Positions 6,107 through 62,840 of a DNA stretch of 64,000 nt are shown here, piece by piece. The stretch comes from a virus (Duplodnaviria; Caudoviricetes). The stretch's first letter is position 1. Every line of letters starts with the position of its first letter. Position numbers and translations under genes: made by a program. The notes beneath the pieces are model-generated. The model saw nothing but the letters and a program-made list of their open reading frames with translations. It was not told the DNA's origin and ran no database searches. The DNA lies in the IMG/VR virus record IMGVR_UViG_3300014204_000111, positions 32,001 through 96,000 of that record, one strand, 5' to 3'.

Positions 6107-7820
6107 AATAGAAAATTTATGTACTATTAAAGATGTAGAATTTGATTTATCCGATATTTCTGTTGCTATGATTGTTGGAGAATCTGGAAGTGGTAAGACA
6201 ACTTTTATTGGTTCTATCTTTGCGTGTTTATATGGAAGTTTTCCTGATAAACCAGAACAGTCTTTATATGACGATGTTTTAAATAAAGAGGCACAAGCAA
6301 AGATATCTGTTACAATAGATATTTCTGGAAAATCATATGTAATACAAAGAATTATTGATAATAAAGACCGAAGATGTTATGCATATGTGTATAATATCAA
6401 TGATATGGCTTCTCCTATTGTTGGCCCTCAAATAAAAGGATTTAATCAATGGATAAGTAACAATTTATTTGATAAAAATATCTTTTTAGCTCTTTATTAT
6501 CTTAGTCAAAAAAAGAAAAATGACATATGTGATTTAGCACCATCAGTAGCCTCAACGGTACTTATGGGACTATTTGGGCTGGATTCTTTCTCAGATACTT
6601 CTAAAAAATACCAAGAATTAGCTAAAGATGCAAATAAAAATCTCGTATATGTAGATAACCAATTTTCAATAATAAGAACTGCTAAAAGTAGACTTGAAGA
6701 GTCTCAAATTAAAATTCAACAATGTTCTACTCAAATAGACGAATGTAATAAAGAACTTAGTGAAATTGACATGTTTTTAAATAATTCTGAATTAACAGAG
6801 CTATCTAAAAATATTACAAGAATTCAAACAGACATTGCGAAATCTCTTTCTTCAAAAGAGAAGTTAGAATTGTCAAATAAGGCAATAAGAAAACAACAAG
6901 ATGTTTATAAGGTTCAAGAGAATTTAATTCGTAACGCTGCGTGTAAAAAAGGCGCTAATTTTGAATATCCATCTTGTCCATTTTTAAATGCTGATAAAAT
7001 TGCTAAAAATTTACAAGATTTACAAGACCAAATTGACCGCAATAATAAGGATATGAGTAAACTTGATAAAGAGCTAGCTCAACAAAGAACTAAATTGCAA
7101 GAATTAACATCAGAAGATAAACCTGGATTTATAAATAAAAAAATTATTTCACAGGAACAAAAAAAGAATGTACTTTCTTTAATTGCTGCTAAAAATAAAG
7201 AACTAGGTGGATTAGAGAACGAAATAGAACATTTACAACAAATTATATCAAAAGAGTCTACATTAAAAAAGGAAAAAGAAATATTTAGAAAAAATGCTTT
7301 ATATGCAGACTTTTTATATAGAACATTTGGTAGAAGAGGAGCGCCATCTTTAATTGTAGAATCTTCGTTAGAAGAGATAAATATAATTGCAAACACTATG
7401 TGTACAGAGTATTATGTGCCATTTAAATTTGCTTTAACCTTTACGAAGGAAGATTCTAATGAAACCCTTCTCGGCTCTTTGAACGTGGTATTATTAGATG
7501 AGGCGTCAAAGCCGCGACATGTATCATCCTATTCTGGAGGAGAAATGCAGTTAGCCCAAATTGTTCTTAGATTTGCTATTCAAGAATATCTCAAAAAATA
7601 TTTAGCAAAAGATAAATTAGCAATTTTTATTGCTGATGAACCTTGGAGCGAAATGGATTCTAATTTAGCAGAATTAGCGTATAATATAATCAATGATAAG
7701 AGTGAATTAGCACAAATTTTAATTATTTCTCATGATACTTCTTTTTGTTCTAAATTTGAGAATGTTATAGAAGTAACAAAATTAGGTAATGAAACAAAGA
7801 TAGAGTTGGTACAAAAATAA
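6090..7820 (+). CDS. sbcC: SbcC/Rad50-like ATPase
   Basis: GESGSGKT, coiled coil, YSGGE signature, IADEP, ISHD. Confidence 0.9.
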   Translation: MIQQVKIENLCTIKDVEFDLSDISVAMIVGESGSGKTTFIGSIFACLYGSFPDKPEQSLYDDVLNKEAQAKISVTIDISGKSYVIQRIIDNKDRRCYAYVYNINDMASPIVGPQIKGFNQWISNNLFDKNIFLALYYLSQKKKNDICDLAPSVASTVLMGLFGLDSFSDTSKKYQELAKDANKNLVYVDNQFSIIRTAKSRLEESQIKIQQCSTQIDECNKELSEIDMFLNNSELTELSKNITRIQTDIAKSLSSKEKLELSNKAIRKQQDVYKVQENLIRNAACKKGANFEYPSCPFLNADKIAKNLQDLQDQIDRNNKDMSKLDKELAQQRTKLQELTSEDKPGFINKKIISQEQKKNVLSLIAAKNKELGGLENEIEHLQQIISKESTLKKEKEIFRKNALYADFLYRTFGRRGAPSLIVESSLEEINIIANTMCTEYYVPFKFALTFTKEDSNETLLGSLNVVLLDEASKPRHVSSYSGGEMQLAQIVLRFAIQEYLKKYLAKDKLAIFIADEPWSEMDSNLAELAYNIINDKSELAQILIISHDTSFCSKFENVIEVTKLGNETKIELVQK

Positions 7821-8797
7821 TGACAAAAGAAATAGGTGATAGTCTCGGCACTTTAAGTAAAGAATTAAATAAGGAGTATGGAGAAGGTACTATTGTTGAT
7901 TTAGATAACGAAGATATTTTTGATGTAGAAACTATTTCGACAGGCTCTTTAGTATTAGATGATTTAACTGGTATTGGAGGAATTCCTTGCGGAAGAGTAA
8001 CTGAGATTTTTGGTAGTGAAGGATGTGGAAAAACTACAATTTGCTCTCAAACAGTTGTTCAAGCTCAAAAGATGGGCAAGAGATGTTTATATTTAGATAC
8101 AGAACATACGGTTGATTTACGATATATGAAGAGTATGGGAGTTGATTTAAAAACACTTATTTTTTCTCGTCCTGCTATCGGAGAGGATGTAATGACAATT
8201 ATTAAAAGATATGTAGAAGAAGATTTAGTAGGATTAGTTGTTCTTGACTCTGTTGCTCAAATGACTACAAAAGCTGAGTCAGAGGGAGACATTGGAGATG
8301 CTAATATGGGAGGAAAAGCTCGTTTAATGGGTCAAACTCTTCGTCTTTTGAGCAAGCCTCTCTTTGACCATAATGTTGCATTAATTCTTGTTAATCAGGT
8401 AAGAGATAAAATTGGTATTACATTTGGTAGTCCTAAGACAACTCCTGGTGGCAAAGCTCTTGCTTTTGCTTGTAGTCTTAGAATTGATATGACAAAACTA
8501 AAAAAGATAAACGGAGATAAGGCCATTCTTACTAAAGCAGAAATTGTTAAAAATAAGTTGGCGTGTCCTTTTGCTAAAGGAGAATTAACAATTGTTCTAG
8601 GAAAAGGAACAATTATAGAACAAGAGATGGTTGAAATAGGTGTTGAAAAGAATTTATGGACAAAGGGTGGAGCTTGGTATAAAATAGATGAAGAGACTAA
8701 ATTTCAAGGCTCTGATAAGCTTGTAGAATATTTAACTGATTTAAGGAGTACGAATAATGAATTATACAAACAGTATCTCTCCACTTGTAGAGGCTAG
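7820..8797 (+). CDS. recA: RecA recombinase
   Basis: GSEGCGKTT, LDSVA, ARLMGQ, NQVR, TTPGGKAL, KNK. Confidence 0.95.
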   Translation: MTKEIGDSLGTLSKELNKEYGEGTIVDLDNEDIFDVETISTGSLVLDDLTGIGGIPCGRVTEIFGSEGCGKTTICSQTVVQAQKMGKRCLYLDTEHTVDLRYMKSMGVDLKTLIFSRPAIGEDVMTIIKRYVEEDLVGLVVLDSVAQMTTKAESEGDIGDANMGGKARLMGQTLRLLSKPLFDHNVALILVNQVRDKIGITFGSPKTTPGGKALAFACSLRIDMTKLKKINGDKAILTKAEIVKNKLACPFAKGELTIVLGKGTIIEQEMVEIGVEKNLWTKGGAWYKIDEETKFQGSDKLVEYLTDLRSTNNELYKQYLSTCRG

Positions 8798-34944: not shown

Positions 34945-37316
34945 TTATTAGGAGATAGTATGTCACAATTGTCATTAACTAAAAACAGAGAACTAAGTAA
35001 TGAAGAGGTTTTAGAGTCATTAGTTAATCTAACTTTTGAGGATTTACCTGATAAATCTGTATCATTTCGAAGAGAGCGTACTATAATACCAACTAAGACC
35101 AAGAAGAATGCATCACAAGATGGAAAAATACAATTTCATCCAGATTTTAATGACCCAGATTATTTAGAGGCTATTCGTCTAGAAGCAGAAACAAACAGAA
35201 TTATTGCTCAAGAAAGAATAGATATGATGCAGATGCAAAGAGAGAGTAGAAATGCTCCTATAAATGTTGAGTTAACATATGTTGATAGAGAACCTAAATT
35301 TGTATATATTCCAGTTACTGAAATTGGGAATGGAAAGATTCATAGTATTCCTGTTAAGTTTGTTCGTGGTGGCACTTTAGTTTGGAACAATTATTTATCA
35401 CCAGAAATGCAAGATGTTATAGGATGGAGAGGCAAGATTAAAATTGAAGAAATATGGGATAGTGAGAAACAAAAAGCTTGTTTAATAAGTTGGCGTGATG
35501 AATTTAACTTGAGATATATAGATGTTGTTTATGTAGATTATATTGTCAATAAGCCAGAGTATGAGGTGATTAGTGAGTAAAATATTTGAAGCATCTGTTT
35601 TAGAAGAGGGACAAGTTAGAGGAGTTAAGAGAATTAAAGAAGGTATTGGTTTTACTTCTCAAACTTATTATGCCGCAGAATGCGTTTGTTTAGATGGAGT
35701 ATTTGCCATTAAAACAAAATCTCCTTTAGAAGAAGGAGATATTATAGTTATCTCTTTATTGAAGGAAACAGAACAAATTAAAGATTGTGTGCCAACTTCA
35801 GTAATAGGAGATTATGCTCCAAGCTCATTAGAGGATTAATTATGTTTTTAACTAGAGAATTAATACTTACAACAATTGCAGAGAATATGGCTCATACTTA
35901 CCAAGTGTGGATTTATAAGCATAATTCAGAAAAAGATATAACTACATTTTGTTCTTGGCTTGCACAAGGTATCATTAATGATTTAAGAAATCAATATGGT
36001 AAGACAATTCCAGAATCCATTTATAAAGATGTTAGAAATTTTTGTGCAAGTTCATATTGGGATTTGTACCATACTGTTCCTCTGTATAAGGCTCAAACTT
36101 TTAATATTGGAGAGCATAATTTTAATTGTATGGATACTGATGCTATTACTATAATGATAGTAAGAGATTACAAGGAAGGTCAAGAAATGCCGATGTATCT
36201 TGGTAGAACAAAAACTATAAAGGAAGAAAACAAGATGACTGAATTAGATAAAGTTATGGCTCCAGAAAAGACTCTTAAAGACCCAGAAGTAGTTATAATT
36301 GAACAAGGTTTACAGAATATTACAAATGCTGAAAGTGAATTGATAGAACTATTAAGTCGTTATTCTACTTGTATTTCTTCTGTAGAAACAATTGGTTCTA
36401 ATATAGTTGCTCTTTTTGCGGAATAAATTATGATATATAAAGAGAGAGTAAAAACTAAACAATCAATGAAGAAAGATTATTTTCCAGAAAGAAAAGAAAC
36501 TTTAGAAGCTATCATTGAGTGTATAGATAGGTCTTGGAGTAAAACACTTCTTCATGCTCGATATAAAAAGTCAGCATATATGCATGATATTTTAGGGGTA
36601 TTTTTTTCTTATCTTCGTAACCAGATACGTTCAAGACTAGAACCTGATGATATGGTTCTTGCATTAGAAGTATGTATTGGGATTAATATTCTTTGTGATA
36701 GAAATAATTGGATAGTTCATGGTAGCAGACCTAAATTTAAATTGGATGCAATTACAATAGGTAATTCAATTTTTTCTGGAGAAGAGATTAATCAAGAGCT
36801 TAGAGATGAAATTTCAGACTTGCTCTTTATGGGCGAAGAGTTGAGGTTTATTGATAAAGGTATAGAACAACTAGAGAATATGATTGTTCAATATGAAGCT
36901 TCTATTGGTGAAGCACATAAACTAGGTAACAATATTGTTAAATTATTTTCGGAGTAATATTATGGCAGATGAAGTTAAGAAGACAGCGTTAGATACGTTG
37001 AACAGTATTATTGGTTTTGATGCGAGTAAGGACGCTCAAGCCGATGTTCGTGCAGGTACAAGTGGAGTCTTTGACGAAGTTTTAAAGACTGTTCGTGAAG
37101 AGCGGGATGCCGAGATTAAGGCTAAGGCGATTGTCCTTTTTAAGGATGCTATTACTCGCGCTAAGTCCTTGGCTAAGATTAAGAGTGATTTTGACAAGCT
37201 CTACCGGAAAGAAGAAGGTGAGTTAGTCAAGCTAGTCAAGCGTATCGAAGCTATGTCACGCGGCGAGGCTCCTCCAATTGATGAAGGCGAGAAGAAGGAA
37301 GATTAATCTAAAATTG

Positions 37317-37343
37317 AAGGGAAGGGTCTTACCCTTCCCTTCG
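37317..37343 (+). terminator. Strong hairpin after ORF ending at 37306
   Basis: GAAGGGAAGGGT-ctt-ACCCTTCCCTTC; no U-tract. Confidence 0.45.
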
Positions 37344-37363
37344 CATCTAGCGAGGATTTAAAT

Positions 37364-47595: not shown

Positions 47596-47649
47596 TTTTA
47601 TTTTTAAAATTTGTTCATTGAAAATTGTTTGCAAATTATTAATAACAAT

Positions 47650-47929
47650 GCCCAGGTGGTGAAATTGGCAAACACAAGGGACTTACATAAAATTGAGCGT
47701 ATATAAAGGAATTTATATATGGATGTCGCCTAATTCGGTGAAACCTAAGTCAAAAGATATGGCAATACCGAGCCAAACTCTAATAAGAGAAGTGTGTAGA
47801 GACTATACAGCGACCATCCAGAACGGATGAAGATAGAGTCCAGACCCCAAACTTAACAGGTAGAGAAATCTATGGTGGTATGAAAATCCCTCGGCTTCGG
47901 TCTTACGGGTTCGATTCCCGTCCTGGGCA
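47650..47929 (+). tRNA. tRNA-Leu(TAA) interrupted by group I intron
   Basis: Exons 47650-47684 and 47883-47929 join to aggga-ctTAAaa-tccct. Confidence 0.9.
47685..47882 (+). mobile_element. Group I intron (198 nt, no ORF)
   Basis: Inserted after U34, ends in G; core AATTCGGTGAAACC, GTAGAGACTA, AAGATAGAGTCC. Confidence 0.9.
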
Positions 47930-48860
47930 TTTATTTTAAATTAGGAGATAATTATGGAGAAATCTTGTTGGTGGATAGAAGGTGGATTATGTTATTTAGA
48001 GCATAATCGTAGAAATACTACAGATGGACGTTCATGTGTTAAATGTAATGGTGTATGTAAGGGTTATATTTCTAAAAGAGAATTTCTTTCACAGTTTATT
48101 CCAAGTGATAAATTGATAATTATGAGCGAGGAAAGTAATATAAATGAAAATTCAATTGATTGTTTATGAAATTTTTGCATGTAATAGTCGTAGAATATTT
48201 CCAAGATTTCCATCTATTCCTCTTGGTGACAAAGTAGATTGTATAAAATTTATGATGATTTCTCATAATAATGTGGTTCCTTTATCAAAAATATGGAAAG
48301 CAACAAAGAGAAAAGAAGGTACACAATAAATGGATGTTAAATTAATTGCTCTTATTATTACGGCTATGGCAGACCATTATTTAGGATATGAATTTGATAT
48401 ACGTAACTTTTACCTTAAATATCATAAATCTATGAATCTTTGCTCAGGTAATAATTTAACTCATATTTGGTCACAGCTTGAACATAGAAGTATAAATTAT
48501 AAGCGGAGTGTAGAATGAAATTTTTATTTCCCAGGTTTATTGCTGTTGAAATGACACTAGGAACGTGGAAAGAAATTTGCCATTTAAATTTCTTTGATAA
48601 AAAATGTATGGCTTTAAATTATGTTTCAGGAACAACATTTTTATCTATGACAAGAATGTTAGAAGAGCTAAAAAAGCTTCTATAACACTGGAGAATACAA
48701 AGAAATGTATAGTATATTATGGTATATAAAATCTTCTATCTATATTAAGATAAAACGAGAATCAGGAATATCTCCTTCTTCTTTATCTCTTTACTGGAGA
48801 GTGTTATGTTTACTGAAAGGTGTTAATGTTTCCATAAATCTATAGCATATAAAATATCAA

Positions 48861-49018: not shown

Positions 49019-50325
49019 TTTGAACTCTAAATAAGGTAATAAAATGATGTTTTTTATTAAATTAATCAGTCTTAAAATTAGAGATTACAGAACATTTGGT
49101 TTAGAATTTAATGATTATTATCCTTATTATTGTTTGCGTAAACCATTTTTTAATCATGCATTATCAGTTTATTTTGACATCTTTATTAGGTCGATAAAAT
49201 CATGACATTATTTTTGCATTTAATTAGCACTATTTTACATATGAAGAAATTCAATCCTTATCGTAAATTTAATTATAATATAAGAGAGTGGAGAGTATTA
49301 TATCCTAAGCTTATATTTAATAATAAATATAAGAGCAGATATCCTCTAAAATTAAGTGATGTTCTTAGATGTATGAAAAATGAGAAGAAAAGTGTGTCTA
49401 GAAATAGAGCGTTTAAATGAAAATACGAATAATAGCTTTTATGATTAATAGGTTGTTCTGGAAAAAATATTTTAATATAACTCCTGAAGAAAAATTTCTT
49501 TCTCAGACTCAGTGTGGGATGGTTAATCCATTATCAACATTATGGAGATATTTAAAAAAGTGAAGATACAATTAATAGCATTTAAAATTATGTTGTTACA
49601 TCATGTTAAATCAAATAGGGGATTTAGCTTAACATTCTTTGATTTAAAGAAGATTAACCAAGAGTTAGACCATCGTTCAATGGGAATGAGAACAATTAAG
49701 TCTTTGTCTCTTTATTGGGGAGAAATTAAGTGCAAGAACTTTTATTCTTATAGTGTGCAAATATGATTTTTAAACTAATTGCTACGGTTATTTTATTAAG
49801 AACTTATCATTCACAACATCTTTCTCTTAGAGAGCATTATAAGGCTTATACTATTTTTATGTCTACAGATTTAGAATTACCATTGTCTGAACTACTTAAT
49901 CGTTTAAAAAGATGTCTGAGATAAATCGTTATAAGGAATCAATTAAATGAGATTGAAATTAATTGCTGTGATAATGGGTTTAATGTATATGGATAGATTG
50001 AAAGTTTATCGTAATGACTTATATAATCTTAGTAAAAATCCGGATATAAGTTTTTCTAGTGGCTTAGTAAACGTTTGGAAAATAATAAAGGAAGAGAGAA
50101 AGAGTAAAAGATGAAATTTAGATTAATTATTTTAATAATATGTATAATGTCTACACACCAAGGTAATAATATACATAAAATATTTGATTTATACGATATA
50201 TATGACTTAAGTAAAAATTCAAATTTCACTTTTATTAATAGCTTATCAAATATTTGGGAAGAAGTTAAATTATCAGGTGTTTGGGAAATTTAAACTAATC
50301 TCTATAGGTGTATGTGCGTTTCTCT

Positions 50326-50353
50326 GTTTAAAACCTCCTAGAACGGGTATAAT
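50326..50353 (+). promoter_or_regulatory. Phage promoter (SigB-like)
   Basis: GTTTAA-N13-GGGTATAAT, 7 nt before tRNA-Gly. Confidence 0.75.
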
Positions 50354-50360
50354 GAGTTAT

Positions 50361-50435
50361 GCGGGTATGATGTCAATGTCAGCATGGGGCGCTTCCAACG
50401 CCTTCGTCAGAGTTAGAGCCTCTGTATCCGCTCCA
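50361..50435 (+). tRNA. tRNA-Gly(TCC)
   Basis: gggcg-ctTCCaa-cgcct, TCCA end. Confidence 0.88.
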
Positions 50436-53222: not shown

Positions 53223-53840
53223 TTACTTTTTAATTGGAATCGGTTCTTTTAAATTATGATGGACTTCCCAATGACAGTTAGGACAAACTAGCATTAAGTT
53301 AGTAGGAGAATTGACAACAGAAAGTAATTCGTTGATATCGAATTCTGGAATAGGTTTAATATGATGAATTTCAACATAATTAGAATATCCACAACAAGAA
53401 CAGACCATTGGAAGTTGCATTTTTTTAATTAATACTCTTGCTAATTCTCTTATTCTAGCATTTTTATTTTTGCTAGTAAGAACCTCTGAGATGGTTATAT
53501 CTTGTTTATTTATTATGGCTATTTTATGCGGTCTACATTCTGGACAATATTTTCTATTAGACCTGATTGGAGTATCACAAATAAAACACCTACCTTCTAA
53601 TGGACGAACACCCGTTGTTCTAGTTAAATTGGTATGAGTACCAGAACAAGATTGAGAACAAAATTTTTGTCTATTATCTGTTGCAATAAAATGTTTATTA
53701 CATTGTAAGCAATATTTATCTGGGATTGCTTTCCATAATTTATAGCAATCAGAAGAACAAAAATGATGGGTATATTTATTTGCATCTGAAGGTTTTCTTT
53801 CAAAAGTTTTTTGACATTGGGTGCAAGTGAGTTGTATCAT
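53223..53840 (-). CDS. HNH endonuclease with Cys-rich repeats
   Basis: C..C...F, FCS..C repeats; EIHHIK, NLMLVCPNCHWEVH; probable start 53840. Confidence 0.88.
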   Translation of the reverse strand: MIQLTCTQCQKTFERKPSDANKYTHHFCSSDCYKLWKAIPDKYCLQCNKHFIATDNRQKFCSQSCSGTHTNLTRTTGVRPLEGRCFICDTPIRSNRKYCPECRPHKIAIINKQDITISEVLTSKNKNARIRELARVLIKKMQLPMVCSCCGYSNYVEIHHIKPIPEFDINELLSVVNSPTNLMLVCPNCHWEVHHNLKEPIPIKK

Positions 53841-54748
53841 AGTAATAGTATTTTTACCCATATTTTAAGTTCGAACCCCATCCGCGCTGCTTTATTTTTT
53901 AATAGAAACTATCTTTTAAATTAAAGGAACCATTAATGTTTGTAGCAGATTATATTTATAGATATGTACATGATGAACAACCTGATGCTTGTTATGATTT
54001 GGGAAGAGCATTTATCAATATTGTTAATTGTATTGAAGCAGATGAAGGGTTTTATTCTGATGGACAAGAATTTCATAGAATTAGACCTCAATTTAGGGAT
54101 AATTATCCAAAATATTTCTTAACTGGCAATAATGTTGCTATGGAAATTAGAAATGACCGTGCTGATGGTAGAACACTTATTGCCTATTTTACGAGAGAAA
54201 GAGTTTGGGATATGAGAGATGACTTAATTTTAGATGAAAAAGGATTTCTTTTAAAAATTATTAAATATTATGATTAAGTGGAGAATAAAATGATTTATGT
54301 GTATATTGATGAAGATTCTGGACGTTTAGCTATTCAGAAAGGTAAAAAACTTAAGAGAGATGAAACAAATGTATATTGGTCTCCAGAAGTAAAGAGTAGC
54401 GGAAATGCTAAATGGAAGTATGACGAAACGAATTTTGAAGAATGGATTGCTGGTCTAGTTGAATTTTTAAATGAATAGTTTTAATAAGTTCTTATTGATA
54501 ATTGTCGATACATTTATCTATCATGGTAATTTTAAATTTTTATCATTATCGGAATATTTAGAATATCTAAAAAAAGGAGGTTAATATGCGAATTTTTATT
54601 GTTTGTCTTGTGGCTCTTTTCTGTCTTGGCTCTTTAGTTGCCTGTAATACCAAGAATGTTGGTAACGAAGGAACTACAGCGGCCACGAATTAAATAGTAA
54701 TGAAGAGAGAAATCTCATTTCTATTCTAAAGTATATATTATCCATCAA

Positions 54749-55314: not shown

Positions 55315-55692
55315 CACTAACTAATTTTTTAAATTTGATTGTATATTCTCTCTGTAAGACAGAAAATATTATGACAAATAATAGCATTGGACTTGAGGAT
55401 AAAATTATTCGAATGAAAGTAATAAATAAGAAAATGTTGACCTCTTTATCTATAAGATTGAAAGAATTAAAATATGGCTATGACAAAATATTCAGGTAAT
55501 TGAGGTCATAATATGAAATTAACTAATTTTTTAAATTTAATTCTATATTCGTTATGTTTTAATGATAAGTATTATCAAAATTCCTTAACTAGCAAAATTA
55601 CGTCGATTAAATTTTTAGATAAAAAGATACTTTGGTCTACAGAACAATCATTAAAAATGAAAAAATTGGAAAAATTAAATTATCATTAAACT

Positions 55693-55720
55693 GTTTTGAA
55701 AACGCTCTACGGGGTATAAT
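55693..55720 (+). promoter_or_regulatory. Phage promoter (SigB-like)
   Basis: GTTTTG-N13-GGGTATAAT. Confidence 0.7.
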
Positions 55721-55725
55721 TATAC

Positions 55726-55899
55726 ACCAGGAGATGCTCATAGGGTAAATGGGCGATGGAGTTTCTAAGCGGTCAAGAGGTAATAGATAGACACGAAGCG
55801 GCTTCCAGTTGTTTTGTGAACTTTTGATAGTCGGTAGAGACTCTTTGATTATCTCTGTAATCTTAAATCAAAAGAATGGTTCGAATCCTTCCCCTGGTA
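55726..55899 (+). ncRNA. 174-nt tRNA-like RNA with greatly extended anticodon arm
   Basis: ACCAGG/CCTGGT acceptor, 6-bp D stem, GGTTCGAATCC T arm. Confidence 0.65.
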
Positions 55900-56088
55900 T
55901 TTTTATGAATATATTAAAAGAATACTCATTTTTAATTACAAGAATAATGTGGTCTATTGTTTGTAATAGACATACACACCCAAGAATACGTTATTTTATG
56001 CGTGATAATCCTGCAAGTGTGCATAAAAATTGGGTTTTACTTAAAAGAATATTCTCCCAAATAATAAGGGATGTACAGGAGTATCGTG

Positions 56089-57081
56089 ATGATTAATAGA
56101 TTTCCTCATATTGCTAGATTGGGGTCAAGAGAAAGTGAAGGAGTTTTTGACTCTGATGTACAAATAACCGAAAAAATCGACGGCTCTACGTTTGCTTTTG
56201 GTAAACTTCATGGTAAAGTTCGTATGAGAACTAATTCTCAAGAGATTCAATTAGGACAACATCCTGAAATGTTTCGTAACGCTGTTATGGTTGTTCAAGA
56301 ATTGAAAGATAGACTTCCTGAAGATGTTATCTTCTATGGAGAGTATCTTCGTAAGAATCGTCACAATGCTTTAACTTATGGTCGTATCCCTAAGAACCAT
56401 ATTATGATTTTCGGTATTCTCGCTAATGGTGAATGGATTACTGATTATAATAAAATGGCTGCTTATGCTGAATCTTTTGGTTTTGAGTCTGTTCCTCTAT
56501 TATTTCAAGGAAAAGTTACATCTTTTAAAGATATTGAGCCTTTGTTAGAAGGTGAAAGTATTCTTGGTGGAAGGATGGAAGGTGTTGTTATCAAGAACTT
56601 TGCTCAAACCATGCATTATAAAGATAAAGAGCAATTGCAGTTTATCAAGTTTGTTAACGATAGTTTTAAAGAAGTCCGTCACATTTCCAAAGATGCAAAG
56701 CAAATTGGACGTTTGGGTGAAACTCTACAAACTAAAAGCAACCTAGATGGTTTGCAATTGGATTTAGATATTCTGACTCAGGCATTTGTGACGGACGCTC
56801 GTTGTCATAAAACTATTCAGCATCTTCATGAAGATGGAAAGTTAAAACTTGATTATTGTGATTTTCCAGTGTTAATGAAAGAATTGGCTTCTGATTTTAT
56901 TTCTGAAGAGAAACTTTCTTGTATTGAAGAGCTAAAGAAATTATTGGTTGGTCGTTGTGATGAAAGACTCATTGACCAATCGGCAGATAATTTGTGGAAA
57001 CAGATTTTTTCTAAGCAAGTTTGTAAAGCTCTTCAACATAAAATGACTGGTATTTATAAAGCTTGGCTGCTGGAGAGATAA
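56089..57081 (+). CDS. RNA ligase (Rnl2-like)
   Basis: TEKIDGS, FYGE, FG, VPLL, EGVVIK, KFV. Confidence 0.8.
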   Translation: MINRFPHIARLGSRESEGVFDSDVQITEKIDGSTFAFGKLHGKVRMRTNSQEIQLGQHPEMFRNAVMVVQELKDRLPEDVIFYGEYLRKNRHNALTYGRIPKNHIMIFGILANGEWITDYNKMAAYAESFGFESVPLLFQGKVTSFKDIEPLLEGESILGGRMEGVVIKNFAQTMHYKDKEQLQFIKFVNDSFKEVRHISKDAKQIGRLGETLQTKSNLDGLQLDLDILTQAFVTDARCHKTIQHLHEDGKLKLDYCDFPVLMKELASDFISEEKLSCIEELKKLLVGRCDERLIDQSADNLWKQIFSKQVCKALQHKMTGIYKAWLLER

Positions 57082-57083
57082 TT

Positions 57084-58100
57084 ATGAATATTCAAGAAAT
57101 ACAAGAGAATGCAAAAGAATATATTAAGGAAGTTATTGAGGTTCCAACAGGCCACATTTTGATTATTCAAGGTGAACACGGCCTGTTGGAATGTTTGTCT
57201 CTTTCTGATTATGGAAAAGAAAAGAATGTTAAAGCATCTTTTCTTGGATTAGAGAATGATATTAATGGCGTTATTCACGGAGAGATGTTACCATTAGAAG
57301 ATAAATGGGTAATTACTATTTCTTCTCAATATGGTTGCTCAATGGGATGTAAATTCTGTGATGTTCCTAAAGTTGGCCCAGGACGTAATGCAACAGAAAC
57401 AGATATTCTTCGTCAATTCTTTGCGGTAATGTCTCTTCATCCTGAAGTAAAGAGTTCAAGAATTAATCTACATTATGCTAGAATGGGAGAGCCTTCATTT
57501 AATCATACGAATGTAATAAAGTCAGCTTGTAAACTGTCTCTCTGGTTTAAAAAAACTAATTATCAGTTTCATCCAGTTGTTTCCACTATGATGCCTAAAA
57601 ATAATACTTATCTACGTAATTTCTTATATAATTGGATGCAGTTTAAAGAAGATAATGATGGTGAAGCGGGACTTCAATTAAGTATTAACTCTACTGATAG
57701 AGAACAAAGAAAGAATATTTTTGGTGGAACAGCATCAAATTTAGATTCAATTAGCTCTTTAGTTGAATTTTTACCTGTTTCTCGTCGAAAGATTGCTCTT
57801 AATTTTGCTCTATGTTCTGATTCTATTATTGATGCAAAAGAGTTAAAGAGGCTCTTTAGTCCTGATAAGTTTATGTGCAAAATTACACCAATGCATGAAA
57901 CAAAAGCTTGTGAAGTAAACAATCTCCATACTCCAGAAGGATATAGCTCATTTGTTTCTTATAAGCCTATTGAAGAGGCTCTAAAAGCAGAAGGGTTTGA
58001 TGTTATTGTCTTTGTTCCTTCTCTTGAGGAAGATAAAGGAAGAATTACTTGTGGTAACGCTATTCTAAGTGATGAAAGATTTAAGGAGATAAATAAATGA
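57084..58100 (+). CDS. RlmN/Cfr-like radical SAM RNA methyltransferase
   Basis: ISSQYGCSMGCKFC, MGEP, LSINS, C-terminal TCG. Confidence 0.8.
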   Translation: MNIQEIQENAKEYIKEVIEVPTGHILIIQGEHGLLECLSLSDYGKEKNVKASFLGLENDINGVIHGEMLPLEDKWVITISSQYGCSMGCKFCDVPKVGPGRNATETDILRQFFAVMSLHPEVKSSRINLHYARMGEPSFNHTNVIKSACKLSLWFKKTNYQFHPVVSTMMPKNNTYLRNFLYNWMQFKEDNDGEAGLQLSINSTDREQRKNIFGGTASNLDSISSLVEFLPVSRRKIALNFALCSDSIIDAKELKRLFSPDKFMCKITPMHETKACEVNNLHTPEGYSSFVSYKPIEEALKAEGFDVIVFVPSLEEDKGRITCGNAILSDERFKEINK

Positions 58101-58593
58101 TACCACTATGGGCTATTTGGATTGTTTGTATTAGCTTAATTTTGTTAACAGCAAGAATTTGGCTCCCTATTTTAATTGTTGTTTTTACTCTTTTTGTATC
58201 AGTGATAGCTATAATAATGCAATTGATAGGAGACGCATTTCAGTGGTGGGCTGATTTATTTAAATAATGTTAAGACAATTTATCATTAAAATAGTATATG
58301 TTGTCTATTGGAAGAATACATTGTCCCATAGAGATATACCAGGAGATATATTTTTTAGGTATAAATGTTATAAATATGCTAAAACTACGTCTGGTTTTTT
58401 TAGCGCTGCACAAACATCCTCTGGATTTAAGAAGTTAAAAAACAAGGTATTGCATGGATAAATTTTTAAAATCGATTTTTTCTATTTTTAGAAAAAATCA
58501 TAGACTATTGTTACTCTATAATTATGTAAGTTTGAAAAATTCTTTTGATGATAGGATTTTTTGGGCTAAAAGAAACAGGGATATGTGAATCCT

Positions 58594-58621
58594 GTTTAGA
58601 ATCGTGTGGGTTGGGTATAAT
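58594..58621 (+). promoter_or_regulatory. Phage promoter (SigB-like)
   Basis: GTTTAG-N13-GGGTATAAT. Confidence 0.75.
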
Positions 58622-59046: not shown

Positions 59047-59826
59047 TTAAAGAGAGAATCTATCTTGTATATCTCTAATTGTTAGAGGTATTATTCCTGG
59101 GGAATGGTCTAGTTCCCAATGACAATTAGGACATAAGATAGTTAGGTTTTCAAGAGCATTAACTTCTGATATTTTAGCATCTTTTGGAAACGAAGAGACA
59201 GATTTGATATGGCATATTTCTACGTGCTTACCATATCCACAATTTGAACATTTCATATCTTGAACTTTGACATTAAATATAAAGAGGATAATTCTTTTAG
59301 CGTGTTCTCTAATTCTAGAAAAGACGTTTGTAGAATATTTAGACTTATGAATAACTGCCTCTAAAGTTATATCTCCAAAATCATTATTAGGTAAAGGAAT
59401 ATGTTTTGTATTTTCTCCAAAACAAGCAGGGGTAGTTGGAATTCTAGAAGAATAATATTTTTTTCTACATTTTGGACAATATTTGTTACTTCTAGGGATT
59501 GATTCTCCACATTCAATACATTGTCCTAAAGGTTGCATTCTTTTTCGTGGAGTATGAGCGTTATTATAAATTGCTCCACAAGTTTGTGAACAGAATGTGT
59601 TGGTTATTTTAGTTAAACTAGAAATTGTTCTAATAATTTCTGTGCCACATTGTTTACAATGTGTTCTTATATTTTCTTTTTGAGAAGCATCTATAAAACA
59701 TTGCATTGTACAATAGTTATTATCACCAAGGTCTTTTCGATATTTGATAAATTCAATATCGCAATGGTCACATTTGACTAGAATGGTTTTATCCGTTAGT
59801 TTTAAAGGTTTACGTGTTCTTTGCAT
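59047..59826 (-). CDS. HNH endonuclease with Cys-rich repeats (paralogue of 53223-53840)
   Basis: CSNCGY..HVEICHIK, NLTILCPNCHWELDH. Confidence 0.88.
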   Translation of the reverse strand: MQRTRKPLKLTDKTILVKCDHCDIEFIKYRKDLGDNNYCTMQCFIDASQKENIRTHCKQCGTEIIRTISSLTKITNTFCSQTCGAIYNNAHTPRKRMQPLGQCIECGESIPRSNKYCPKCRKKYYSSRIPTTPACFGENTKHIPLPNNDFGDITLEAVIHKSKYSTNVFSRIREHAKRIILFIFNVKVQDMKCSNCGYGKHVEICHIKSVSSFPKDAKISEVNALENLTILCPNCHWELDHSPGIIPLTIRDIQDRFSL

Positions 59827-61341: not shown

Positions 61342-62022
61342 CTTTATATTTTAGGAGTTAATTATGACCAAAATGTATAAATGTATTGACTGCGGAGTTG
61401 ATACACAGAAGATTGATGAATATTACATTGTTCACAATTGGGTATGGAATGAAGCAATGCCAATGACTCCAATAAATGCTATTTATATTGAGGATGGGAA
61501 AGTAAAAACAGATGTTCTTTTAAGACAAGGGAAAGGAATGCTTTGTATTGGTTGTCTTGAGAGAAGACTCAGACGTAAGTTAACTAAGAAAGATTTCCTA
61601 GATTGTCCTGTTAATACAGATAATAAAAGATGGCCTAAGAGCAAAAGATTAAGAAAGAGGATGAAGAGATGATTTCACCTTTTAGACATGAAATTGGTAG
61701 AAGTAGAATTTACAGTCAAGAGCAAAGTCCTAGAGTTTTTGAAGTTTGGATTGAATTAGAAGATGGAAGTCAATATCCTTATAGAGGTAACTACAGTAAA
61801 CCTGTTAGCAAACCATATAGAGATAGATGGCTTAAAAACGAACAAGAAGGGTATGACGGATTGAATCCTAGAAAGTTAAATTCAAAACCTAAAAGAATAT
61901 TTATTTTAGAAGTTTGGTTAGAAGTCGTCGAGGTACGTGAAATATGATTGATATACTTGTTTATCATTATTTTGATGATTCTATCTTTGTGGTAGATTTC
62001 TATCGTTAAATAAAGAGAAGTT

Positions 62023-62050
62023 GTTTGAGCCGTTTCGTTCTGGGTATAAT
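62023..62050 (+). promoter_or_regulatory. Phage promoter (SigB-like)
   Basis: GTTTGA-N13-GGGTATAAT. Confidence 0.75.
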
Positions 62051-62269: not shown

Positions 62270-62551
62270 ATGTTAAAACTTAGATTATGGTTAGATGATG
62301 TTCGTCCTGCTCCAATCCTAGATAGTTGGATGGTAGCAAAGAATTATCAAGAGGCAATTACTTTAATTGATAAATATACGTTCTTTCTTTGCTCTTTAGA
62401 CCATGATTTAGGTGAAGAGAAAGATGGTGCTGATGTTTTACAGTATATGATAGATAATGATAAGGTTCCTGAATTGGTATTGATTCATTCTAAGAATCCT
62501 GTTGGAGTTGCAGAAATGAATAGAATGCTAAATCGTTATTGGGATAAATAA
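62270..62551 (+). CDS. Cyclic-phosphate-processing receiver-domain protein
   Basis: LWLDDVRPAP, SLDHDLG, IHSKNPVG. Confidence 0.75.
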   Translation: MLKLRLWLDDVRPAPILDSWMVAKNYQEAITLIDKYTFFLCSLDHDLGEEKDGADVLQYMIDNDKVPELVLIHSKNPVGVAEMNRMLNRYWDK

Positions 62552-62812
62552 ATGGATATTAAACAAACTCTTATTGCAATGCTTGATTTAAAAGATAAAA
62601 TAGACAAAAGAAAAGATATTTTATGTCAACGTATATCTCCGTCTATATTATATACATATCTTCTTTATAATAAAGATAAAGAGTATGCTGATTTGCTAAA
62701 TCAATTTAATCAGTTAAGAATTGATTTAGCTCATTCTTTAGAAAACTCATATGAAAGTATGGGCGATTTATTAGATTATGTAAAAAGTTCGATAGATTCT
62801 AAGTAAAGCCGT

Positions 62813-62840
62813 GTTTGAGACTCTTCATCTTGGGTATAAT
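62813..62840 (+). promoter_or_regulatory. Phage promoter (SigB-like)
   Basis: GTTTGA-N13-GGGTATAAT. Confidence 0.75.

Follow-up and report, generated by a model that had tools for sequence, protein, structure and literature searches.

What is an RNA gene that has the arms of a tRNA, an 87-nt duplex where the anticodon arm should be, and an RNA ligase gene directly downstream? The question is raised by an uncultured phage whose genome record in IMG/VR is 220,861 bp long, carries direct terminal repeats and has a G+C content of 31.7%. We analysed bases 32001–96000 of this record, a stretch of 64,000 nt that we refer to as ‘the window’; positions are those of the window unless the genome or another record is named. 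The RNA, 174 nt long, had first been noticed from the sequence, and the original prediction described it as a novel tRNA-like gene with its own promoter, acting perhaps as a decoy, a ribosome binder or a spliced precursor. A tRNA-like RNA gene with its own promoter is supported by the fold, by the promoter family and by the absence of matches to models of known RNAs. The three proposed roles fared differently: the decoy is still a candidate, the ribosome binder found no support, and the spliced precursor is unlikely.

The RNA can be folded into five arms (Table 1). All of the helices named in the original prediction are present between 55726 and 55899 on the + strand, and the match of this fold with tRNA exceeds chance. 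The five-arm fold has an energy of −51.9 kcal/mol, only 0.4 kcal/mol from the MFE structure (−52.3 kcal/mol), which retains every helix but the T stem; the folding z of the whole RNA is −2.4 to −2.9. The T loop, of tRNA type, is bordered by G53 and C61, and the GG of the D loop, required for a tRNA elbow, is present. The 11-mer GGTTCGAATCC of the T arm (55878–55888) occurs three times in the 221 kb of the genome; the other two copies lie inside tRNA genes, which points to descent from a tRNA. The variable-arm region can form either of two hairpins: an outer one, the one originally proposed, with a 6–7-bp stem and a 15-nt loop (−50.7 kcal/mol), or an inner one, with a 6-bp stem and a 4-nt loop (−51.9 kcal/mol), which is the preference of RNAfold. 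The arms of the tRNA core are as listed in the original prediction, but the core is less regular: the T stem has a bulged U55877, or otherwise two mismatches; acceptor pair 7 is an A-C mismatch; the linkers that join the acceptor to the D stem, and the D stem to the long arm, are 3 nt each, not two and one; and U8 is missing. Because of these irregularities, the RNA may not make a true L-shape. An ORF that overlaps the RNA (55809–56096) matches no family, and complementarity between the unpaired loops and other parts of the genome goes no further than chance 10-mers. A 7-nt version of the apical loop, resembling the loop of tRNA-Gly(UCC), can also be drawn, a likeness that we take to be at chance level.

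Table 1. Features of the 174-nt RNA locus and of the genes that follow it (window positions)
Feature	Position	Strand	Evidence or remark
Phage promoter	55692-55720	+	TGTTT, 18 nt, TATAAT, with GGGG before TATAAT
tRNA-shaped RNA, whole gene, 174 nt	55726-55899	+	Fold; no Rfam or ARAGORN match
Acceptor stem, 5' strand	55726-55731	+	Six Watson-Crick pairs with 55893-55898
D arm	55736-55754	+	6-bp stem, 7-nt loop with GGG
Long arm in anticodon-arm position, 87 nt	55758-55844	+	32 pairs
Variable-arm region, two mutually exclusive hairpins	55845-55872	+	Folding energies
T arm	55874-55891	+	Canonical loop UUCGAAU, bulged U in stem
Acceptor 3' strand and discriminator A55899	55893-55899	+	CCA not encoded
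T run, five T	55900-55904	+	Immediately 3' of the RNA
Rnl2-type RNA ligase, next gene	56071-57081	+	Pfam RNA_ligase PF09414, E 5.5e-19; PHROG RNA ligase
Radical SAM gene, overlaps end of ligase gene	57063-58100	+	phrog_24834, E 1e-111

The consensus −10 that had been seen 5 nt before the RNA is part of a longer phage promoter motif. Its TATAAT occupies 55715–55720, and the 5' end of the RNA, A55726, follows about 5–6 nt on. The family motif consists of TGTTT, 18–19 nt and TATAAT, mostly with GG or GGG before the TATAAT, and the genome has about 40 copies of it between 60 and 131 kb, every one on the + strand. Exact matches in the window number six, against 0.01 expected (0 of 100 shuffles). 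Other copies lie 17–30 nt before the start codons of small genes, or 4–10 nt before the 5' ends of tRNAs. Copies within window 40067–62840 include those at 50325–50353, 58593–58621, 62022–62050 and 62812–62840; the genes that the family drives are tRNAs, odd small RNAs and numerous small ORFs whose leaders measure 17–30 nt, and its −35-like element is unlike TTGACA at the usual spacing. Judged by the position of the motif, the first acceptor base, or one next to it, is probably where transcription starts, so that there would be no 5' leader to remove. Expression of the 174-nt RNA is predicted from this promoter. The T run that follows the RNA was not called in a terminator scan, nor is there a convincing terminator after the RNA, so read-through into the ligase gene is likely; no further copy of the family promoter lies between the two. 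The RNA most likely heads a transcription unit that continues through the ligase and radical SAM genes, just as ordinary tRNAs head other units nearby.

Those units belong to a long tRNA island, in which the 174-nt RNA gene also sits. ARAGORN finds 18 tRNAs in the window and Rfam some further ones; CCA is encoded in 14 of the 20 tRNAs that ARAGORN calls in the phage. One of these genes, tRNA-Leu(UAA) at 47649–47930, carries a group I intron of about 198 nt at position 37 (Rfam, 69.8 bits at 47675–47862), a site that we take to be the one known from cyanobacteria and plastids, occupied here in a phage. A probable tRNA-Gly(UCC) with an encoded CCA and a non-canonical T loop, UUAGAGC, at 50361–50435, was missed by both ARAGORN and Rfam, and in several other island tRNAs the T loop begins UGC rather than UUC. 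Automatic calls thus undercount the tRNAs of this phage, and their true number is well above the total called. The island also holds two HNH endonuclease genes (53223–53861 and 59047–59826) and, at 62270–62551, a gene for a 93-aa stand-alone cyclic-phosphate processing receiver (cREC) domain (PF20274, E 3.5e-25), a marker of RNA-repair systems. It is, in short, an island of tRNAs mixed with RNA-repair parts. Elsewhere in the genome (170350–184002, + strand), a single open reading frame runs for 4,551 codons.

Is the RNA a member of a known family? At the locus (55600–56000), Rfam gives no match at E ≤ 10 to tRNA (RF00005), tmRNA, tRNA-Sec, YrlA, group I introns or small ribozymes; the same library does detect the group I intron in tRNA-Leu(UAA), 8 kb upstream. 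ARAGORN finds neither a tRNA nor a tmRNA, intron mode included. The features themselves agree with these results. Where a tRNA has a 5-bp anticodon stem and a 7-nt loop, this RNA has its 87-nt, 32-pair arm. Where tmRNA (RF00023) has G3:U70, the pair at position 3-70 is C3-G70, and a tag reading frame and pseudoknots are absent; the RNA is indeed, as had been stated, not a normal tmRNA, and it likewise has no group I core. In relation to YrlA (RF02553), the arm topology is reversed, the motif GNCGAAN0-1G is absent from the RNA, and the phage has no TROVE gene. As for tRNA-Sec (RF01852), an 8-bp acceptor forms only with the A-C mismatch, and there is no UCA loop. The comparison with tmRNA, YrlA and tRNA-Sec models that accompanied the original prediction has thus been made, and came out negative even at a permissive threshold. 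‘Novel’, the word used there, holds in that no catalogued family matches, but not entirely: rnaC of phage T4, to which we return below, has the same order of arms and also lies in a tRNA cluster.

Searches for relatives were equally negative. The region 55400–56300 has no blastn match among 50,697 phage records; a scan of IMG/VR for the exact pattern of T arm and acceptor returned nothing close; and protein scans of IMG/VR with the ligase and with RecA found no close relatives. A scan of IMG/VR for sister phages by the promoter motif gave single matches at chance level, two of them in one record (G001). The RecA of that record is just 31% identical, and that of a jumbo-phage record with one match (G003) is 33% identical. 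A scan of metagenome contigs for the pattern of D loop, gap and T arm produced six matches, all of them ordinary tRNAs beside a chance 12-mer. A covariance model of the RNA (R1), run over 86 sources and two jumbo-phage records, recovered the query plus weak 16-bit matches only. Two of the weak matches, each of about 85 nt (16 bits, E about 0.2), lie at window 37260–37345 and at L004:13946–14030; they may be further long-variable-arm tRNA-like genes that standard detectors miss. None of these searches found a homologue or paralogue of the 174-nt RNA. Two DNA sequencing runs do contain the stretch: one is probably the landfill metagenome that was its source, and the other is a groundwater metagenome, in which it appears as short identical pieces. 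The identical groundwater sequence is the sole other occurrence, and neither run contains variants or joints at the locus.

With no relatives in which to look for covariation, the argument for selection is carried by internal evidence, and this comes from the long arm. The arm comprises, in order, a 10-bp helix, a 2-bp helix, an 8-bp helix, an internal loop of 12 nt on one side and 2 nt on the other, and a 12-bp apical helix. Its 32 pairs are 13 A-U, 10 G-C and nine G-U, and there are no A-C oppositions within the helices. Folded as the + strand, the arm has an energy of −31.3 kcal/mol (z −4.2); folded as the − strand, −10.0 kcal/mol (z +0.17). This asymmetry points to constraint on the strand that is transcribed. 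So do the pairs themselves: a neutrally decaying DNA palindrome would collect G-U and A-C oppositions equally, and nine of the one with none of the other is what constraint at the level of RNA would predict, and what a palindrome of recent origin would not. The genome holds no other copy of the arm, which is consequently not a repeat element.

The evidence of the arm bears on the plainest alternative to a working gene, namely that an insertion disrupted what was once a long-variable-arm tRNA, which survives as a functionless leader of the ligase operon. The imperfect core (the bulged T stem, the acceptor mismatch and the odd linkers) is of the kind that decay would leave, CCA is not encoded, unlike in most of the called tRNAs, the searches yielded no relatives that could show constraint, and the HNH endonuclease genes of the island could drive rearrangements. 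Against decay, a strong promoter of the phage family stands intact exactly at the 5' end, and the insert, besides having no second copy that would make it a repeat element, has kept all of its pairs and folds only on the transcribed strand, unlike a palindrome decaying neutrally. We regard decay as rather unlikely, and prefer to see in the locus a functional RNA gene.

Another possibility is a tRNA gene interrupted by an insert. The original prediction raised, as a speculation, the idea that the RNA could acquire an amber anticodon if an insert were excised, and so become an amber-suppressor tRNA. This idea has little support, since the excisions fail, there is no motif at the junctions and the splicing enzymes are missing. 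The proposed 104-nt product is not called by ARAGORN. Deletion of each possible middle segment of 30–124 nt produced 4,654 variants, and at default stringency none of these single excisions was called a tRNA; at relaxed stringency many were, with mutually inconsistent anticodons, the proposed splice never among them. A bulge-helix-bulge is absent from the proposed junctions because the 3' junction falls within the continuous 10-bp helix, and genes for the splicing endonuclease (PF01974) and for RtcB (PF01139) are absent from the 221-kb phage genome. Recoding of stop codons, a further possibility that we considered, was rejected: ORF cover is dense under standard code 11, TAG ends 17 of the 195 long ORFs of the phage (~9%), nothing special is gained by reading it as sense, and TAG is an ordinary stop.

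The broader form of the splicing idea is that the RNA is an insert-bearing pre-tRNA, from whose anticodon loop a hairpin of about 70 nt is cut, the halves being joined by the neighbouring ligase to give a long-variable-arm tRNA with anticodon CUA or another. Several observations favour it. A 5-bp stem and a loop, UU-CUA-AG, with U33 and a purine at 37, can be read in the base of the arm; an RNA ligase gene comes next; and the phage tolerates one interrupted tRNA gene already, that of tRNA-Leu(UAA) with its group I intron. There are also precedents. Lak megaphages have oversized tRNAs with ‘enigmatic introns’ and no known splicing mechanism (10.1101/356790). We found another on an unrelated 44.5-kb phage contig (L039:651–762): a canonical tRNA-Cys(GCA) with a 39-nt hairpin inserted within its anticodon, and, 1.7 kb downstream of it, a ligase that belongs to the same family. 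Like the 174-nt RNA, these are genes of phage tRNA clusters—in large phages, in the case of Lak—in which a hairpin interrupts the anticodon region. They differ from it in that removal of the insert restores a callable tRNA, and in that the insert of the 174-nt RNA base-pairs across the entire would-be anticodon loop. To this difference must be added the failed excisions and their contradictory anticodons, the lack of a bulge-helix-bulge, of a group I core and of any ribozyme match, the absence of splicing endonuclease and RtcB, the ordinary use of TAG, and the kind of ligase concerned, which is of the nick-sealing Rnl2 type and not of the Rnl1 type that closes anticodon loops. We give this reading little credence. 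A true precursor, in which a double-strand- or loop-specific nuclease of host or phage removes the hairpin and the adjacent ligase rejoins the halves, is less probable still. Were it to exist, it would represent protein-only tRNA splicing in a bacterial virus, yielding a long-arm tRNA (e.g. with anticodon CUA), and would provide the first physiological substrate for an Rnl2-type ligase. Since neither the intact RNA nor any single-excision product is called a tRNA, we treat the RNA as non-decoding.

The ligase gene is where the original prediction placed it, immediately downstream, but its ORF can begin 171 nt on (ATG 56071) rather than 190 nt on; the latter distance fits the shorter, 330-aa form. 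The AlphaFold model of the protein (pLDDT 92) has full-length T4 RNA ligase 2 as its best PDB matches (2HVR and 2HVQ, E 3e-11), and on the strength of this model the enzyme is classed as a nick-sealing, Rnl2-type ligase. The radical SAM protein encoded next has weak partial matches to RlmN/Cfr models, far under their cut-offs. It is 55% identical to a Bacteroides phage protein and belongs to an uncharacterised phage family; there is no RNA context beside this homologue, the closest one, in the Bacteroides phage. Nor is there such an RNA upstream of the closest relative of the ligase (53% identity). That relative is encoded on a 5.3-kb metagenome contig, and 800 nt upstream of it (L002:310–402) lies a 93-nt tRNA(UAU), which has a TTGACA/TATACT promoter of its own. 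Its variable arm is long, its acceptor has 8 bp and its T stem 4 bp, an 8/4 shape that is, we presume, the one described for allo-tRNAs. In a scan of 80 more distant ligase loci in IMG/VR, which covered tRNAs, orphan T arms and upstream gaps with structure, we found no RNA like rnaC. An ORF-free gap of at least 120 nt within 900 nt upstream is present at five of the 80, and the three gaps of those five that directly abut the ligase gene contain neither a T-loop motif nor a tRNA-like fold. In L042, a 175-nt match that combines a T-arm-like motif with a fitting acceptor seems to be due to chance. The pairing of RNA and ligase is, then, not general.

The spacing and the survey of ligase loci also bear on the possibility that the fold acts in cis, as a signal for processing or regulating the mRNA of the ligase and radical SAM genes (through cleavage that defines its 5' end, for example, or as an operator to which the repair enzymes bind), and not as a trans-acting RNA. 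With no family promoter between RNA and ligase gene, and no convincing terminator after the RNA, co-transcription is probable. But the end of the RNA is about 171 nt from the ribosome-binding site of the ligase gene, too distant for a direct translational operator; ordinary tRNAs precede ORFs in other units of the island, so position alone is no sign of regulation; and 75 of the 80 ligase loci of other phages lack any ORF-free gap of at least 120 nt in the 900 nt upstream. A cis-acting leader seems to us distinctly improbable, and we return to the RNA as a product in its own right.

How does such a product compare with the tRNA-like RNAs already described? Bacterial Y RNAs (YrlA, and Yrn1 of D. 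radiodurans) are likewise non-decoding tRNA mimics with T and D arms. YrlA RNAs share one operon with the RtcB ligase, and have been proposed as possible competitive inhibitors of anticodon nuclease (PMC7790460); the RNA-repair operon rsr-yrlBA-rtcBA (PMC4201824, PMC7790460) thus places them, as the 174-nt RNA is placed, beside an RNA ligase. The arrangement of arms is the opposite. In YrlA the ends of the RNA lie in the ‘anticodon’ stem, the acceptor is closed, and the order is T arm, acceptor loop, D arm. The 174-nt RNA has no GNCGAAN0-1G, TROVE neighbour or RF02553 match, and its partner is an Rnl2-type ligase instead of RtcB. With topology, motif and partner genes all different, the likeness is not one of membership, but would be an analogy of function. 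The tRNA-like domain of tmRNA resembles the 174-nt RNA in another way, in having an acceptor/T-arm minihelix with a long helix instead of an anticodon arm. The 174-nt RNA differs from it in its full D arm, in the lack of G3:U70, tag frame and pseudoknots, and in its length, well under that of tmRNA.

The same genome contains other promoter-driven units that resemble tRNAs. One, of 116 nt (L004:2407–2522; genome 98407–98522), is a second tRNA mimic, with a 7-bp acceptor and a canonical 3' T arm. Its interior holds several hairpins, of which one looks like another T arm and precedes a 7-nt ‘acceptor 3' strand’; CCA is absent, and neither Rfam nor ARAGORN calls the unit. At least five more units open with a closing stem, which a T arm follows (L004:4932–5030, 7080–7165, ~7873–8000 and ~8033–8160; genome 120734–120800). 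Three of these continue with a closed, acceptor-like hairpin, and in two of the three a D-arm-like segment pairs to the 5' end. YrlA-type Y RNAs have their arms in this order, but the units have no Rfam YrlA match and the phage has no TROVE gene. Might the 174-nt RNA be a Y-RNA-like scaffold for a Ro60/Rsr–PNPase machine, or a tmRNA-like binder of ribosomes that works through SmpB? The presence of T-arm-first units in this genome is in favour of the former, as is the drawing of D. radiodurans Yrn1 with its ends at the acceptor position (PMC4201824). The negative Rfam and ARAGORN results speak against both. The missing motif and TROVE gene, and an acceptor stem of 6 bp, far under the length of a Ro-binding stem, count against a Y RNA; the missing G3:U70, tag ORF and pseudoknots count against a tmRNA. 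We think either identity very improbable indeed.

By layout, the closest analogue of the 174-nt RNA is T4 rnaC (species 1 RNA), a likeness that need not imply common descent. The role of rnaC is still unexplained (PMC3014915, PMC9697503). In its 139 nt, an acceptor-like stem is combined with two hairpins, the first of about 58 nt, and then a canonical T arm. Its consensus fold has 14 covarying pairs across three genera; it is present in 740 phage records, and has no Rfam family. Both are small RNA genes within phage tRNA clusters, and both run from an acceptor-like stem through a long irregular hairpin, a shorter hairpin and a T arm with the loop UUCGAAU to the 3' acceptor strand. In pairwise alignment, sequence identity is confined to the T loop, and blastn of the locus against the phage collection that holds the 740 rnaC records gave no match. 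The differences are several. rnaC has no D arm, which the 174-nt RNA possesses, and has two U-U oppositions in its acceptor stem; it lies directly downstream of rnaD and tRNA-Arg, whereas a promoter of its own stands at the 5' end of the 174-nt RNA; rnaC is widespread, whereas no relative of the 174-nt RNA was found; and no RNA ligase gene adjoins it, whereas the 174-nt RNA precedes one. The T4 ligase gene in question, rnlB, lies elsewhere in the T4 genome, we believe, and not beside rnaC. Relative to rnaC, whose layout and tRNA-cluster setting it shares, the 174-nt RNA has the D arm and the dedicated promoter in addition. The 174-nt RNA is an orphan in sequence, akin to the ‘stable RNAs’ of phage tRNA clusters, and what can be said of it beyond its structure and promoter has a single genome as its basis.

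With moderate confidence, we conclude that the 174-nt RNA is a real, non-decoding, tRNA-mimic RNA gene. It would be transcribed from the phage-specific promoter as the first element of a unit that continues into the Rnl2-type ligase and radical SAM genes. Its acceptor stem, D arm and canonical T arm would give it a tRNA-like elbow and minihelix, a module that the 3'-processing, CCA-adding and T-loop-modifying enzymes of host tRNAs could recognise, so that the RNA should be released and stabilised by being trimmed and capped. The 87-nt imperfect duplex is probably the working part, since an RNA that has this duplex instead of an anticodon arm is far too long to act on the ribosome. We infer that the RNA takes part in a conflict over tRNA damage and repair. 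It could serve as bait or competitor, with a host nuclease or some other tRNA-binding factor as the target, or as a substrate or partner of the co-transcribed nick-sealing ligase; to a role as bait or substrate specifically, we attach roughly half of the confidence that we place in the gene itself.

The stable tRNA-cluster RNAs of T4, rnaC and rnaD, have been a puzzle for decades. To our knowledge, T4 RNA ligase 2 has no known natural substrate. That an unrelated phage sets an rnaC-style mimic, with its own strong promoter, directly before a gene for an Rnl2-type ligase is a lead that can be tested. If the pairing is functional, non-decoding tRNA mimics with long duplexes may be partners, substrates or protective bait where phage translation contends with host nucleases that cut tRNAs, and the same idea could be applied to T4. 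If it is not, the locus would be a clean example of the reuse of the tRNA scaffold for other RNAs.
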